Below, one piece after another: positions 8,937 through 64,000 of a stretch of 64,000 nt of DNA (within the stretch, counting starts at the first letter, position 1; each line of letters starts with the position of its first letter). A program made the position numbers and the translations under genes. The stretch comes from Roseibacillus sp. Lineage in GTDB: Bacteria > Verrucomicrobiota > Verrucomicrobiia > Verrucomicrobiales > Akkermansiaceae. The stretch lies in contig JBPOGI010000001.1 of NCBI GenBank assembly GCA_051251855.1, positions 1,696,001-1,760,000 of the forward strand. Direction: 5' to 3'. The notes beneath the pieces are model-generated. The model saw only the letters and a program-made list of their open reading frames with translations, ran no database searches and was not told the origin of the DNA.

Positions 8937-11900
8937 GTGCACGCGCTCTACGTCGAAAAACGCCCCGAACACAATCAACCCGCTCAAACCCTTCTCTCCG
9001 ACCTGCGAGAGATCCTCAGCCTGCCCCAGTTGAGCGACCTCCGCCTGCTCCAGCGCTATTTTGCCGACGGTCTCAGCGACGAACATTTTCATCAAGCCAG
9101 CGAGCACATCCTCTCCGAACCCTTCACCGAAGAAACCTTCTCCCAACTCCCTGCCGCCGAACACACCTTCGCCATCGAATTCCTCCCTGGCCAATTCGAC
9201 CAACGCGCCGATTCCGCCGCCCAGTGCATCGCCATCCTCACCGGCCAAGAAGCCCCTCCCCTCACCTCAGCCCAAGTCTACCTCCTCCAAGGCGACCTCT
9301 CCGACGAACAACTCCAAGCAGTCAAAGACTACCTCATCAATCCCGTCGATTCTCACGAGGCCTCCCTCAACCTCCCTGCAACCCTCACCCCACCAGTCAA
9401 AGACCCCGCCGACGTCGCCACCCTCACCGGTTTCATCGCCAAGTCAGAGCCCGAACTCAGCGCCCTCCGCGCCGACCTTGGCCTTGCCATGACCCTCGCC
9501 GACCTCGCGCATACCCAGACCTACTTCCGCGATGAGGAAGACCGCGACCCCTCACTCACCGAGATTAAACTCCTCGACACCTACTGGTCGGATCACTGCC
9601 GCCACACCACCTTCCTCACCAAAATCGCCGAAGTTACCTTCGGCGAAAATACCGAGACCATCCAAGCCACCTACCGCAACTACCAAAACACCCGCGACGC
9701 TCTTTACGGCAAAGACACCCATCGCCCCGAGACCATGATGGACCTCGCCATCATCGCCGCCAAAGAACTCAAAAAATCAGGCGAGCTCGACAACCTCGAA
9801 CTCTCCGAGGAAATCAACGCCGCCTCCATCATCGTCGAAATCCCTCTCACCAAAGACGGACAAGAGAGCACCGAAGAATACCTCATCCAGTTCAAGAACG
9901 AGACCCACAACCACCCCACCGAAATCGAACCCTTCGGCGGAGCCGCCACCTGCCTCGGCGGCTGCATCCGCGACCCCCTCTCTGGCCGCGCCTACGTCTA
10001 TCAAGCCATGCGAGTCACCGGAGCCTGGGACCCTCGCACCCCTTTTTCAGAAACCCTCCCCAACAAACTCCCTCAGCGCAAAATCTGCCTCGAAGCCGCG
10101 CGCGGTTACTCCTCCTACGGCAACCAGATCGGACTTGCCACCGGCCAAGTTTCCGAAATCTATCACCCCGGCTACGTTGCTAAGCGCATGGAAATCGGTG
10201 CCGTCGTCGCCGCCTGCCCGCGCAGTCAAGTGCAACGCGGCAACCCCGCCCCCGGCGACATCATCCTCCTCATCGGCGGACGCACCGGACGCGATGGCGT
10301 CGGTGGAGCGACGGGTTCCTCCAAAGAACACACCGAGACAGCCCTCGAAAACTCCGCCGAAGTCCAAAAAGGCAACCCGCCTACCGAGCGCAAAGTGCAG
10401 CGCCTCTTCCGCAACCCCGAGCTTTCCTACAAAATTAAGCGCTGCAACGACTTCGGCGCTGGCGGAGTCTCCGTCGCCATTGGCGAACTCGCCGACAGCC
10501 TCGATATCGACCTCGATGCCGTCCCCAAGAAATACCAAGGCCTCGACGGCACCGAACTCGCCATCTCCGAATCCCAAGAACGCATGGCCGTCGTCGTCGA
10601 CCCCTCCGACGTCGCCTACTTCATCGCCGAGTCTGACAAAGAGAACCTCGAATGTGTCCAAGTGGCCATCGTCACCGACAACGGCCGCATGACCATGACT
10701 TGGCGAGGCCAAAAAATCGTCAACCTCACCCGCGACTTCATCGAAACCAACGGCGTCCAAGGCTCCGCCAAAATCCACATCAATTCCCCCACTAGTACCG
10801 TCACTGGGAGCGCTGGTCTGCGACTGGCCCCGCAACCCGATCAAAACCTCAAGCTCTCCCTCCTCGCTCACCTCTCTCTTCTCCATAACGCCTCCCAAAA
10901 AGGCCTCGGCGAGATGTTCGATTCCTCCATCGGCTCCGGCACCGTTCTCTCCCCCTTCGGCGGAAAAAATCAACTCACTCCGCCCGACTCCATGGTCGCC
11001 AAAGTCCCCGTTCTCGACGGCGAGACCGACGTCTGCACCCACATGTCTTGGGCCTTCGATCCCAATCTCAGTAGCGCCTCACCCTTCCACGGCAGCGTCC
11101 ACGCCGTCGCCGAATCCGTTTGCAAGCTCGTCGCCACCGGAGCCCGCCTCAGCGACACCCGCCTCACCTTTCAAGAATACTTCCCCAAGCTCGGAGACGA
11201 CCCCGCTCGCTGGGGCCTACCCTTCGCCGCCTTGTTAGGCGCATTCCACGCCCAACAAGGACTTCGCCTCGCCGCTATCGGAGGGAAAGACTCCATGTCC
11301 GGCTCCTTCAAGGACCTCGACGTCCCCCCCACTCTCGTTTCCTTCGCCCTCGCCCCCGGCAAAGCAAGTCAAGCACTCTCACCCGAGTTCAAAGCCGCAG
11401 GCTCTACCCTTAGCCTCGTCACCGCCCCCACCGACAGCGAAGGCCTACCCCTCTACCCCGAACTCCTCGCCCTCGCCGACCAACTGCACCAACTCACCTC
11501 CAGCGGACAAGTCCTCTCCCTCAAATACCTCGGCCAACCCGGTCTCGGCTACGCCCTCGCCCTGAGCACCCTCGGCAACACCATCGGAGCCAAAGTCTCC
11601 AACGGGTCAGACGTCCTCGCGCCCGCGCCCTACACCTTCCTCCTCGAAACTACCCCAGAAACCCAACTCCCCGAGAACTTCCAACTCATCGGCGAAACCA
11701 CCACCGAGGCCACCCTCGTCATCAACGACGACACCATTCCTCTCATCGAACTCGAAAGCGCCTACACCACCCCCCTTGAGTCCGTTTATCGCACCACTTC
11801 CACTCACCCCTCGGCCACCAGCGAAGCCACCGTTGCAGCGGTCACCCAAGACAGCCCCGCCAAAGCACCCGCCCTCCTCAGCACCAAACCGAAAGTCATC

Positions 11901-59347: not shown

Positions 59348-61285
59348 CTACTGAACGAACAAAAACTCATGCGTCGACAGTAGAGCCGAAGACAAGTTGC
59401 GATAACTCTCCTCAGAGCCATCAATCACGTCCCTCATGAGAAGCTTCATCTCATCATCTGAAGGGGGACGGCCAAGAACAGCGTAGTAGAGATAGCGAAC
59501 CTTATCACGGTCGGTGCTCCCCGCTTCCAACGCTTTGTAGAGCGCCGAATCGTCATTACTCACCACCATCTTCTCGACATGTCCGTTCATCATCGAAAGA
59601 ACCTGCGACATGTTTGCTTCGTTTGTGGCCGAATCCAAAAGAACACGGTCGGACTGTCCAAACTGACGCAAAAAGTGACCCTTTGGCGCAGGAGACTCCA
59701 GTTCAGAAGCGCGTGCCATTCCCTTCACGGGACCTGAACGTCCTCCACCGCTCATCATCATCCCCATAGAGTCGTCCTTCTTCTTTTTCTTACTCTTAGA
59801 ACCTCCATTATACTTAGCGGCATCAAGGAGACCGTTGATATACTCGCGGTAAGCGCCGGGAGATTTGATCGCAAGAAGCTCCTTTGAGAGCTCGGTCATC
59901 GTCTTCTCTCCGTTTCCGAGAGCAATACGGCTGTAATAAATCGAGTTACTGAAGTTACGCTTCGGGAGAGCATCAGGGTTCCCCTTCACCAATGTCACCA
60001 TGGAGTCCCAAACCTGTTCCGCAGTCATCCGCTCAAGCTGGCGACCATTGAATGATTGAGGAACGCCGGCATCAAACGCCTTTGGATTGGCTGCGAACTG
60101 GAAGTTTCGAGTAAGAAGCAAAACATTCTGGAAAGCCTTTAGATCATAATCCAACGTCTTCATCAAAGCGATCAAGTCGTTCACCAATGCAGGAGAAACA
60201 GTATCTTCAGGCTCCTTGTATTCGTCAACAGGCTCCCAAATTCCACGGCCCATCACTCGCTGCCACATCCGATTGACGATAGTCGCATTGAAACGAGGAT
60301 TATCGTTGCTAGAAATCCAAGAAGCAAAGGTCTCGCGTGAATCACCAGCATTCTTGCGGTCAGACGTCCGCTCACGATTACCAAACGGAGTCTTTCCTCC
60401 AATCATCTCACCAGGGTCGCCATCGCGATACTGATAATCCTTAGGCAACTTGATACGCCCGTCGCCTCCACCAGCAAGTGTTGCATAGTGAATATTGTCC
60501 CCAATCCAGTCCACAAGGTAACCAAAATCGGTACGTTCTTCTTTTGCATCACGCACCTCACGCCAAACAGTGTCCCAAGGTCCGCGATTCACTTCCCGCT
60601 GACCGGTCACGAATGCCGCCAAATGATAAAAATCCATCCGCTCATACTCACCGAATGGATCGTCGTGGCACTGCGCACATTCCATCCGAGTTCCCGTGAA
60701 AATGCGCATTGTGTTGGAGAGGTTATCGAGCTCCATTCCCTTATCGCGAACGAAGTAGCCCACCGCGCCATTGTCAGCTTCCCAAAGAGAACCTTTAGAC
60801 GCGAGTAGCTCCTGGGCAATCTGGTCCCATGGCTTGTTCTCTGCGACTGCGGTGTGCACATACTTCAAGTAAGGCTCCGCGCTGGAACGCCCACTATCAA
60901 AAGTTTCCTGAGCTCGCAGAATATCGAGAATGTAATTGGTCATGTGACTCCGGTATCCATCGGAGTTCATCAAATAGGTAACAAGAGCCTCTCGCTTATC
61001 GGTATCTTCAATTTCGAGGAAAGCACGTGCCTCTTCCAAATTCGGGATTCGCCCACCGGCTACGAGAAAACTGCGACGCAAAAATGTGGGGTCATCAACC
61101 ACCTCAGGTACAGGCAACTTTTTCGACTTATAAAGAGCCGCAACGTGCCGATCGACCATCAGAGCCGACTTTTTAAGAAACTCAGGATCTTCATTTTGAG
61201 AAGACTTCTGAGCCAGCAAGGGGCAAGGGAGCAATGCGAGTGCCGAAAGCACTCCAACCACTTTTGAGTTTTTCATCATAGACAT
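59348..61285 (-). CDS. DUF1549/DUF1553 (PSCyt2/PSD1) domain protein
   Basis: D.TFLRR, MECAQCHDDP, DFY.LAAF, NP.F...IVNR.W..VMGRG, R.TAEQ.WDS, LGRPP. Confidence 0.88.
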   Translation of the reverse strand: MSMMKNSKVVGVLSALALLPCPLLAQKSSQNEDPEFLKKSALMVDRHVAALYKSKKLPVPEVVDDPTFLRRSFLVAGGRIPNLEEARAFLEIEDTDKREALVTYLMNSDGYRSHMTNYILDILRAQETFDSGRSSAEPYLKYVHTAVAENKPWDQIAQELLASKGSLWEADNGAVGYFVRDKGMELDNLSNTMRIFTGTRMECAQCHDDPFGEYERMDFYHLAAFVTGQREVNRGPWDTVWREVRDAKEERTDFGYLVDWIGDNIHYATLAGGGDGRIKLPKDYQYRDGDPGEMIGGKTPFGNRERTSDRKNAGDSRETFASWISSNDNPRFNATIVNRMWQRVMGRGIWEPVDEYKEPEDTVSPALVNDLIALMKTLDYDLKAFQNVLLLTRNFQFAANPKAFDAGVPQSFNGRQLERMTAEQVWDSMVTLVKGNPDALPKRNFSNSIYYSRIALGNGEKTMTELSKELLAIKSPGAYREYINGLLDAAKYNGGSKSKKKKKDDSMGMMMSGGGRSGPVKGMARASELESPAPKGHFLRQFGQSDRVLLDSATNEANMSQVLSMMNGHVEKMVVSNDDSALYKALEAGSTDRDKVRYLYYAVLGRPPSDDEMKLLMRDVIDGSEESYRNLSSALLSTHEFLFVQ

Positions 61286-61532
61286 TTACGTTTAACGCTT
61301 TGCAAAATTAGAGGTTTTTCAGGAAAATGCCGAGAAAACTTTCCTACAATACCAAGATATCGTGAAACTTAACTCAAAACCGCAGAAATCAGTCAAAAAA
61401 TCGTCAGAAACTGAAGAGAAAAGCCTAAATCTGTGAACCTGGCTGAAATTTGAAAGAGCAGTCTCGCCATTTCATCCCAACAATGGCGATAGACTTTCCC
61501 TTCCCCTTCCGTCTAGGCTCACATCGTAACCA

Positions 61533-62411
61533 ATGAATCGACGTCATTTTCTCACCGCTACCTCTGCTGCCGCCCTCATGCCCTCCGCTTTTGGACAAAA
61601 GCCAAACAAACCCCTCTTCGATATCTCGATCGCCCAGTGGTCGAACCATCGCATGCTTAAGGCGGGTAAATTGACAAACCTTGATTGGCCCCAATACACC
61701 AAAGACACCTACGACATTCATGCCTTGGAGTACGTCAATCAATTCTTCAAAGACAAAGCCGAGGATGCAGCCTATCTCGCCGACCTCAACAAACGCGTCG
61801 ACGACTTAGGCATGACCAACGTCCTCATCATGATCGATGGCGAAGGCAGCATCGGCGCTATCACCGAAAAAGAACGCAACAAGACCGTCGACAAGCACAA
61901 GCGTTGGGTCACAGCAGCCAAGACGCTCGGCTGCCACTCAATTCGAGTCAACGCCTACGGGGAAGGCTCTCCTGAAGATGCCGCCAAACAAGTCACCGAC
62001 GGCCTCCACAAGCTTTCTACCTTTGCCGCTGACCACGACATCAACATCATTGTTGAAAATCATGGGGGAAACTCCTCGAACGGCAAATGGCTCTCAGGAG
62101 TTCTCACCGCCGTCAATCTTCCCAACTGCGGTTCCCTCCCCGACTTCGGTAACTTCCACGAATACGACCGTTACCAGGGCATTAGCGACCTAATGCCTTT
62201 CGCCAAGGGGGTTTCGGCTAAATCTCGTGAGTTCGACAGCGCTGGTAACGAAGTCCAAACTGACTTCACCAAAGCAATGAAACTCGTGCTCGAAGCAAAC
62301 TACCGCGGCTACGTTGGCATCGAATACGAAGGCAAGAAACACACCGAAGACGAGGGCATCAAACTCACTAAAGCTCTTCTCGAGAAAGTGCGCAGCGAAT
62401 ATAAGAGCTAG
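61533..62411 (+). CDS. Tat-exported sugar phosphate isomerase/epimerase family protein
   Basis: RRHFL; SIAQWS, LEYV, LGCHSIRVN, VENHGG, LPDFGNF, SAK, GIEYEG. Confidence 0.85.
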   Translation: MNRRHFLTATSAAALMPSAFGQKPNKPLFDISIAQWSNHRMLKAGKLTNLDWPQYTKDTYDIHALEYVNQFFKDKAEDAAYLADLNKRVDDLGMTNVLIMIDGEGSIGAITEKERNKTVDKHKRWVTAAKTLGCHSIRVNAYGEGSPEDAAKQVTDGLHKLSTFAADHDINIIVENHGGNSSNGKWLSGVLTAVNLPNCGSLPDFGNFHEYDRYQGISDLMPFAKGVSAKSREFDSAGNEVQTDFTKAMKLVLEANYRGYVGIEYEGKKHTEDEGIKLTKALLEKVRSEYKS

Positions 62412-62451
62412 CCTCAGATTTTCAGGCGACGAGGAAAACGGCTTCAACTTG

Positions 62452-62636
62452 GGCGTCAGCGGCTATGATTCGGTAGTATTGTCCTACTCTGGGCCGCCCG
62501 AATCATCCATCCAAAGGTCGGCCGGTCTTTGCGGGTGACCATCCCTTGCGACTAACCGCCAAATGAAGAACTAGGGCGCGTTCAGCCGCCACTCCCTATC
62601 GTCAGATTGGCCGGTATCGCCTGATTGAGTGACGCT
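62452..62636. ncRNA. Candidate structured intergenic RNA element
   Basis: Nested stems: 62453-58/62630-35, 62459-64/62584-89, 62465-73/62498-506 and others; no convincing ORF. Confidence 0.45.
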
Positions 62637-62686
62637 ATCTATTTTCAGCAAGCCTTAAAACCTACACTGTTAGACACCCAACCAAT

Positions 62687-62720
62687 AAAAAACCCCGCCA
62701 GCCGAAGCTCGCGGGGTTTT
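62687..62720 (-). terminator. Intrinsic (probably bidirectional) terminator after eno
   Basis: AAAACCCCGC...GC-TTCG-GC (minus strand)...GCGGGGTTTT. Confidence 0.8.
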
Positions 62721-62745
62721 GAAAATTATCGGAAGCGTTAGCCCA

Positions 62746-64000
<1,255 letters not shown>

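Follow-up and report, generated by a model that had tools for sequence, protein, structure and literature searches.

The question raised by this locus is what kind of sequence occupies ~185 nt between two convergent genes of Roseibacillus sp., close to the downstream end of the 64,000-nt stretch of DNA analyzed here (hereafter the window; table 1). A preliminary description had seen in it a multi-branched structured element and, most readily, a new noncoding RNA, with an atypical 6S RNA and a small mobile element as the alternatives.

The Locus and Its Flanking Genes

The spacer between the xylose-isomerase-like TIM-barrel gene and eno is 334 nt long (62412-62745). As the preliminary description had stated, the two genes converge, the TIM-barrel gene on the plus strand facing eno on the minus strand according to the ORF list and Pfam, and the bidirectional eno terminator that it named is present in the spacer. 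The element starts 40 nt past the TIM-barrel stop codon and ends ~50 nt ahead of this shared terminator, and no promoter-like site was seen on the plus strand of the spacer; thus, the window copy is probably transcribed as the 3' UTR of the TIM-barrel gene. The GC content of the spacer with the element (62450-62599) is 0.58, compared with ~0.50 in the flanking genes and 0.35-0.38 in the neighboring intergenic region (61250-61474), which fits an insertion of GC-rich repeat DNA. The closest named relatives of the TIM-barrel protein belong to Roseibacillus species (88, 84, 83, and 78% identity), and the sequencing runs that contain window DNA are seawater, marine, and macroalgal metagenomes. Pieces of the element were found in contigs of two of the four runs searched; they are near-identical to the window, with three differences in one case and one in the other, and come from the same species.

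The simplest account of such a spacer is that it is unconstrained DNA, or what is left of a pseudogene, in which stems have arisen by chance. In a BLAST-type search of 60 relatives, with the flanks of eno and TIM-barrel (XI) orthologues, the eno terminator was the sole conserved piece of the spacer, as would be expected on this account, and the shuffle-like folding energies reported below also agree with it. On the other hand, the spacer contains no open frame of at least 40 aa; in blastx against 685 flank ORFs of relatives, no match below E 0.5 fell in the element, and the top matches were on the terminator. The neighbors that eno and the TIM-barrel gene have in relatives have left no trace in the spacer. 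A pseudogene remnant was rejected on these grounds. Chance stems are already contradicted by the family matches described below, in which paralogues share colinear blocks with the element, and we regard this account as very unlikely.

The region of the terminator (62679-62735) is about 78-90% identical over 35-55 nt in six genomes. Downstream of it, the gene order was different in each relative examined, and the TIM-barrel gene adjoins eno in the window genome only; the pair of neighbors was found in no relative examined, and there was no empty site to compare.

Folding of the Window Copy and Searches for Known RNAs

All of the complementary segments named in the preliminary description are present within 62452-62636. 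The MFE structure of the plus strand makes use of the closing stem GCGTCA/TGACGC (62453-58/62630-35), which is the counterpart of the outer inverted repeat of the family described below, of the hairpin formed by the perfect 9-bp pair ATGATTCGG/CCGAATCAT (62465-73/62498-506), and of the GGTCG..CCG hairpin. The segments GCGGCT (62459-64) and AGCCGC (62584-89), which had been proposed to form a stem stacked on the closing stem, are also in place, but the plus-strand MFE structure does not pair them. The heptamer GGCCGGT occurs twice, at 62520 and 62609. Although the segments are real, the fold as a whole lies within chance. As RNA, the plus strand reached -66.9 kcal/mol with a z-score of -1.51, and 15 of 200 shuffles were as good; for the minus strand, the z-score was -0.45 (64/200 shuffles as good), and with DNA parameters it was -1.11 (30/200). 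The comparison with shuffled controls, which had been named beforehand as a possible refutation, thus went against the proposed structured element on both strands.

Perfect 9-bp hairpins with loops of 3-30 nt were found 15 times in the 64-kb window, compared with 4.7 +/- 2.2 in block shuffles, and one such hairpin in a spacer of 334 nt is locally unusual (about 0.025 expected). This hairpin, however, is absent from every other copy of the family, where the corresponding bases are noncomplementary, and an exact 32-mer of it was absent from a collection of genome contigs. The branched fold is peculiar to the window copy, and the proposed branches are not conserved in its paralogues. We concluded that the branches of the window copy are accidents of decay.

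A search of positions 61000-64000 against Rfam 15 at E <= 10 gave no match on the element and returned terminator-like noise only; 12 other loci of the family, searched at E <= 1, likewise gave terminator-like noise only. The resemblance to 6S RNA (RF00013) lies in the length of ~185 nt and in an irregular closed hairpin, with a closing stem and internal loops. Moreover, the 6S RNA of this genome is unplaced: RF00013 has no match at E <= 0.01 anywhere in the assembly (95.4% complete), so that a 6S RNA of the lineage, should there be one, has diverged beyond the reach of the model. The element, however, matches neither the 6S model nor any other Rfam model even at E <= 10, its fold has a z-score of about -1.5, and its sequence is palindromic, multi-copy, and found in only one of eight congeners. 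Several copies in its own genome and presence in one of eight congeners are unlike a housekeeping RNA, and it is scarcely conceivable that the element is an atypical 6S RNA or another single housekeeping noncoding RNA.

A Family of Diverged Imperfect Palindromes

Below, G000 is the window's own genome and C-numbers are its contigs, G001-G005 are congeners, and L-numbers are metagenome loci. With the spacer as nhmmer query, G000 yielded two colinear matches at C10:271283-271001 (E 0.0019 and 0.53) and weaker matches on C7 and C6. The blocks common to these paralogues are GCGTCAGCGG, CGGTAG, CCGCC.AAATCATCCAT, and GGCGCG..GCCGCCACTCCCTA.CG. Profiles built from the first copies recovered 12 further loci in G000 (table 1), and the profile searches indicated ~13 diverged loci of one imperfect-palindrome family. 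The copy number, another of the checks suggested beforehand, is thus ~13, where a BLAST-level search had seen a single copy. This result demonstrates that "single copy" or "no conservation" at the BLAST level can hide a diverged repeat family that is visible to profile searches of the same genome. The insert between the arms of the C1:312455-313001 copy is GC-rich and strongly self-pairing.

The window copy is the most degenerate of these loci, and the family's central ~70-100 nt are missing from it in alignments A1 and A2. A three-copy profile matches the window at 62430-62527 (E 5.8e-6), and a profile built without the window copy gives two colinear matches on the plus strand, at 62453-62523 (12.2 bits) and 62562-62613 (13.8 bits), with E-values of 0.14 and 0.043 genome-wide and of 0.0018 and 0.00056 within the window. 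Judged by these window-free matches, the boundaries of the element are real. A five-copy profile at E <= 0.01 missed the window copy.

A full copy consists of two inverted arms, CGGTAGGG followed by a GC-rich stem-loop on the 5' side and a stem-loop followed by CCCTACCG on the 3' side, which are joined by a partly conserved spacer of ~150-170 nt. The left arm runs from the outer GGCGTCAGCGG... through CGGTAGGG and a GC-rich segment ending in CCGCC to a ATTCATTGA.. block; the right arm mirrors it (CAATGGAT.., GGCGCGGC(A)GGGCCGCCACTCCCTACCG, ...CCGCTGACGCC), and the two are inverted repeats with GGTAGGG/CCCTACC tags. With the profiles, full copies were detected on both strands and a single arm could align to either end of the model; half-copies that consist of a single arm exist, for example on C9 and C8. 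A small conserved ORF was considered for the arms and rejected, the 15-aa frames being broken by indels between copies. In four of seven copies (C10, C7b, C7a, and the one in G005), the arms pair with each other to form a single long hairpin. The C10 copy is the best of them, with a near-perfect long hairpin whose z-score is -6.72 (0/200 shuffles as good), and the fold of the G005 copy has a z-score of -1.99; the window, C6, and C11 copies show no arm-to-arm fold. All 13 loci in G000 are at gene 3' ends, 7 of them between convergent genes, 6 between tandem genes, and none between divergent genes by a longest-ORF heuristic; on inspection, the C6 locus, tandem by the heuristic, lies downstream of upp (minus strand) facing a plus-strand ORF and is thus convergent. 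Synteny around the C10 locus is absent in five congeners, and this locus too offered no empty site to compare.

Table 1. Coordinates of the Element, Its Parts, Its Neighbors, and the Other Copies in the Same Genome
Feature	Position	Strand	Evidence
Xylose-isomerase-like TIM-barrel gene, 5' of the element	61533..62411	+	ORF list; Pfam PF01261, E 1.4e-19
Whole element, probably a degenerate, center-deleted copy of a ~250-nt imperfect-palindrome (REP-dimer) family	62452..62636	+	nhmmer, profiles, alignments A1/A2
Outer inverted-repeat end (GGCGTCAGCGG), common to C10, C7b, and G005; degenerate partner TGACGC at 62630-62635	62452..62462	+	Alignments, MFE closing stem
5' GTAG tag (CGGTAG) of the left REP-like arm	62471..62476	+	A1/A2 block; pairs with 3' CCCTA(C/T)CG in 4/7 folds
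Conserved left-arm block GGGCCGCCCGAATCATCCATCC	62491..62512	+	Alignment columns conserved across copies
Local palindrome CAAAGGTCGGCCGGTCTTTG, the inner TTGAAAGGT..ACCTTTCCAA hairpin of other copies; central deletion just after	62512..62531	+	Repeat search, A1/A2 gaps, half-copies on C9 and C8
Right arm AAATGAAG...GGGCGCG..AGCCGCCACTCCCTATCG, REP stem-loop with degenerate CTAC tag (CTAT at 62596-62599)	62561..62601	+	Most conserved block of the family; metagenomes, Verrucomicrobial genomes
Bidirectional intrinsic terminator of eno, outside the element	62689..62720	.	Inverted repeat in spacer
Enolase gene (eno), convergent, continues past the window end	62746..64000	-	Pfam Enolase_C, E 8.7e-129
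Full-length copies, ~250 nt (n = 5)	C10:270989-271243, C7:408513-408772, C7:338451-338700, C6:201408-201660, C11:169353-169602		Profile search
Copy with ~300-nt insert	C1:312455-313001		Profile search
Arm-only or partial copies (n = 6)	C1:746347, C1:1842884, C8:371177, C9:159686, C6:516593, C7:595512		Profile search

Several of these features could be those of a structured RNA family confined to this lineage, whether sRNAs or cis-elements of 3' UTRs. Selection would then keep the long hairpin for what it does in the transcript, such as blocking exonucleases, serving RNase III as a substrate, or helping termination, and its likeness to REPs, described below, would tell of its origin and not of its present role. 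Besides the location of all 13 loci at gene 3' ends, the window and C7a copies each have a stop codon on one side and an intrinsic terminator on the other, four of the six full copies are co-oriented with the gene immediately upstream, sequence blocks are kept despite a mean column identity of ~56-58%, and the spacer exceeds the neighboring intergenic region in GC content, as given above. The homologues, however, showed no covariation in the 23-pair arm-to-arm structure of alignment A2, in a test whose power is low with seven sequences: 78.9% of the cells are paired, compared with 78.2% in shuffles (176 of 500 shuffles do at least as well), and the covariation score of 0.176, compared with 0.167 in shuffles, was reached by 190 of 500. 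The changes among copies mostly break pairs, as expected for drifting inverted repeats, and RNAalifold on alignment A1 returned just 21 pairs at -10 kcal/mol. In the stated orientation, 15 G-U cells stand against about 10 A-C cells; this leans toward an RNA, but the asymmetry is weak, and neither strand is favored, contrary to the earlier suggestion that G-U extensions weakly favor the plus strand. Furthermore, three copies lack the family hairpin fold altogether, seven of eight congeners lack the family, and the plus strand has no promoter-like site. A structured RNA family of this kind appears unlikely. The new multi-branched RNA first proposed, with no Rfam match, shuffle-like energy, unconserved branches, and no covariation, is not supported, and the window element is probably not a new regulatory RNA.

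REP Units and RAYT Genes in Other Genomes

Model R1, which describes the ~250-nt form, detected the family in 2 of 61 genomes, G000 and G005, and in two of the nine genomes of the genus; G005 carries two loci. When the right arm was reduced to a degenerate 27-nt pattern, matches were found in >131 metagenome stretches, many of which are regular arrays with a period of 91-176 nt that alternate with an inverted GGTAGGGCGGCCCGG...CCGGGCCGCC partner (GGTAGGGCGG...). On 80 metagenome loci, R1 gave 52 matches at E <= 0.1, most of them to the right-arm unit only; it spans both arms in L117 (E 3.6e-9), L123 (2.1e-7), and L189 (1e-6), the best of the 80. One exact 26-mer, the commonest, was found in 42 stretches of genome contigs belonging to 16 assemblies, with up to 11 exact 26-mers in one assembly; 15 of these 16 carry titles with the names Akkermansiaceae, Verrucomicrobiales, Verrucomicrobia/-ota, Haloferula, Luteolibacter, or Opitutus. 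In these relatives, the REP unit consists of the tag, an 8-bp stem, and a 5-6-nt loop. The 27-nt pattern was found in none of 300 other genomes sampled evenly across the phylum, which indicates that the carriers are a minority. Four matches of a right-arm 19-mer were set aside as chance, having neither an R1 match nor a REP context.

The dimer of L117 lies directly 5' of a RAYT-like ORF (RAYT, REP-associated tyrosine transposase) with an HUH motif. This ORF, which is cut by the locus end, matches the NCBIfam model REP_Tyr_transpos (NF047646) with E 1e-11 and 44.9 bits, a score below the 80-bit cut-off. Relatives of the L117 protein are encoded at 208 places, and of the 80 kept, nearly all are titled Verrucomicrobial. 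Within +/-700 nt, 38 of the 80 kept RAYT loci carry GGTAGGG[CA]G or its complement, 29 of them on both sides; at 80 of the 208 loci, the tag motif gave 149 matches, compared with 2 for the reversed control motif. Within the genus, the L117-type protein has five matches in G002 and one each in G001 and G004. G002 also contains 14 exact copies of a 16-nt right-arm motif (control, 1), and four REP units bracket the RAYT-like ORF at G002 C32:2178-2552.

In G000 (95.4% complete) and G005, by contrast, no L117-type RAYT was found at E <= 0.001, as would suit, for G000, a family left orphaned and decaying. Other Y1 proteins are present in G000, which has eight PF01797 matches, and its RAYT-like genes score 94.5 (over the cut-off), 78.7, and 79.1 bits against REP_Tyr_transpos; each of these three is flanked by its own, different inverted repeats, and the palindrome family was not found within 1.5 kb of any Y1 gene in G000. 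A candidate cognate RAYT, flanked by the REP unit, was thus observed in other genomes (L117, 38 of 80 loci, and G002:C32) but not in G000. In the simplest reading, the RAYT type that accompanies the REP unit elsewhere would have been lost, leaving the copies in G000 and G005 as an orphaned population.

A Probable Decayed REP Dimer

According to the survey by Di Nocera et al. (2013; PMC3733652), GTAG REPs have stems of 6-13 bp and form head-to-head dimers with the tags outside, the spacers of these dimers are usually 20-100 bp long and may be conserved and structured, and REPs lie downstream of ORFs, between tandem or convergent genes; GTAG REPs are reported there from PVC bacteria, including Opitutus terrae, with RAYT genes flanked by REPs. 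Compared with GTAG REPINs as described in that survey and by Bertels and Rainey (2011; PMC3116915, PMC3337134), the family of the window is alike in the GTAG/CTAC tag beside a GC-rich stem-loop, in the inverted pair of units with the tags outside that can form one large hairpin, in its extragenic position downstream of ORFs with convergent and tandem pairs favored and singlet half-copies present, and in the RAYT-like genes that the REP unit flanks in other Verrucomicrobial genomes. The location of the 13 loci at gene 3' ends is typical of REPs and matches that survey. It differs from them in that G000 holds ~13 strongly diverged loci without a cognate RAYT, in an extra outer inverted repeat, and in a spacer of ~150-170 nt, compared with 20-100 bp, that has its own conserved blocks and an inner hairpin. 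The metagenomic arrays with their 91-176-nt periods resemble BIMEs, which are REP clusters of alternating orientation (Nunvar et al. 2010, PMC2817692), whereas the copies in G000 are isolated dimers or singlets and not arrays.

Thus, we consider it likely that the element belongs, as a decayed copy, to a dispersed, noncoding family of GTAG-tagged REP dimers (REPIN/BIME-like), a REP-like form of selfish DNA. The small mobile element, the last alternative of the preliminary description, was therefore right in kind, since the sequence is best placed as a degenerate copy of a dispersed palindromic REP-dimer (REPIN-like) family. We propose that full members are head-to-head GTAG-tagged REP dimers that can fold as one long hairpin and that the REP units would be spread as single-stranded hairpins by a RAYT. 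In G000, which lacks the RAYT type found beside the REP unit elsewhere, the ~13 copies would drift apart, and the window copy would have lost its center and most of its arm pairing. Sitting after the TIM-barrel stop and ahead of the eno terminator, it would be a 3' UTR passenger, probably co-transcribed; a present effect, such as a modest 3' hairpin barrier to 3' end decay, is possible. With its center deleted and its arms unpaired, the window copy is best regarded as inert or nearly so.

Several observations count against placing the family with REPs. Classical REPs number tens to hundreds per genome, and a high copy number was not found here, with only ~13 strongly diverged loci in G000 and 2 in G005. 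The short stem-loops of the arms themselves are degenerate in G000, the outer inverted repeat (GGCGTCAGCGG...) extends beyond the GTAG tags, and the match of the window copy to the window-free profile is weak (12.2 and 13.8 bits). The spacer of ~150-170 nt also exceeds the range reported for REP dimers in PMC3733652. In G000, neither a cognate RAYT nor an empty site nor another sign of mobility was found, and the arms may resemble the metagenomic REP partly by convergence, both being GC-rich palindromes. The long conserved spacer with its inner hairpin, the outer inverted repeat, and survival in two species that lack the RAYT type found beside the REP unit elsewhere would also suit a 3'-UTR hairpin exapted as an RNA element, be it a stabilizer of transcript ends, a source of RNase III-processed sRNA, or an insulator of convergent genes, with the window copy as a reduced form; we give such an exaptation only a slim chance.

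The outer inverted repeats also bear on a different kind of mobility. ERIC-type and other MITE-like elements are 100-300-nt imperfect palindromes of transcribed intergenic regions, with 3' UTR positions and internal indels. The family resembles the ERIC type in being an imperfect palindrome, in its 3' UTR position, and in its indel copies (the insert of C1:312455-313001 and the central deletion of the window copy). It is set apart by its GTAG-tagged arms and RAYT association, which place it with REPs, and by the lack of a target-site duplication pattern (one of seven copies). If the family were a classical cut-and-paste MITE, an internally deleted IS moved by a DDE transposase, the outer GGCGTCAGCGG.../...CCGCTGACGCC would be its terminal inverted repeats. 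Such repeats lie beyond the GTAG tags in the C10, C7b, and window copies, copies of an 8-nt direct repeat (ATTTTCAG) stand on either side of the window copy, at 62418 and 62641, and the distribution of the family is patchy. Flanking direct repeats of at least 8 nt, however, were found in only that one of seven copies at a background rate of 6.4%, a transposase between two such ends was found nowhere in G000, and the divergence among the copies is far too great for a recent burst; a MITE of this kind is quite improbable.

The reading as a decayed REP dimer removes a false lead, the apparent multi-branched noncoding RNA being a relic repeat, and adds a Verrucomicrobial REP-RAYT system to mobile-element biology. 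In addition, with a congener that keeps a REP-flanked RAYT and G000 keeping ~13 diverging dimers, the genus may offer a natural case for the study of REPIN decay after transposase loss. On REPs or RAYTs in Roseibacillus or the Verrucomicrobia, the literature searched yielded only the general survey PMC3733652; this specific REP family appears to be undescribed, although it may coincide with one of the 24 published GTAG families.

Other Repeats and Y1 Proteins in the Same Genome

A copy of a different repeat (CACTGGGAGCGCTGGTCTG.GAC.GGCCCC.C) lies elsewhere in the window, at 10803-10834. In G000, the RAYT-like gene at C1:1784356-1784853, the one that scored 94.5 bits against NF047646, has four copies of this unit in its flanks, and the 14-mer core of the repeat is present 23 times in the genome, in several cases as inverted pairs ~100 nt apart. 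This repeat and the gene that it flanks look like a live REPIN-RAYT system. The palindromic 14-mer GGACAGGAATGTCC is another REP-like family; it is found 31 times in G000, often as inverted pairs 31-44 nt apart (e.g., C10:300496/300531, C8:84561/84597, and C8:250945/250976).

Four paralogous proteins of 383-428 aa, encoded at C1:904088-905335, C9:124248-125525, C9:122877-124160, and C10:136021-137169 in G000, two of them by adjacent genes on C9, have an N-terminal Y1/HUH-like region with a partial match to REP_Tyr_transpos (59.8 bits in the one scanned). In the 400 nt on either side of these four, we saw no hairpin with a GGTAG/CTACC tag. Finally, an array of ~400-700-nt units with shared 14-mers (~25-34 copies each) makes up the whole of contigs C2-C5 and occupies C10:1-2700, C7:1-5300, and C6:10500-12200. 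The array is thus found at contig ends and on four contigs of 2-3 kb, and it probably broke the assembly.
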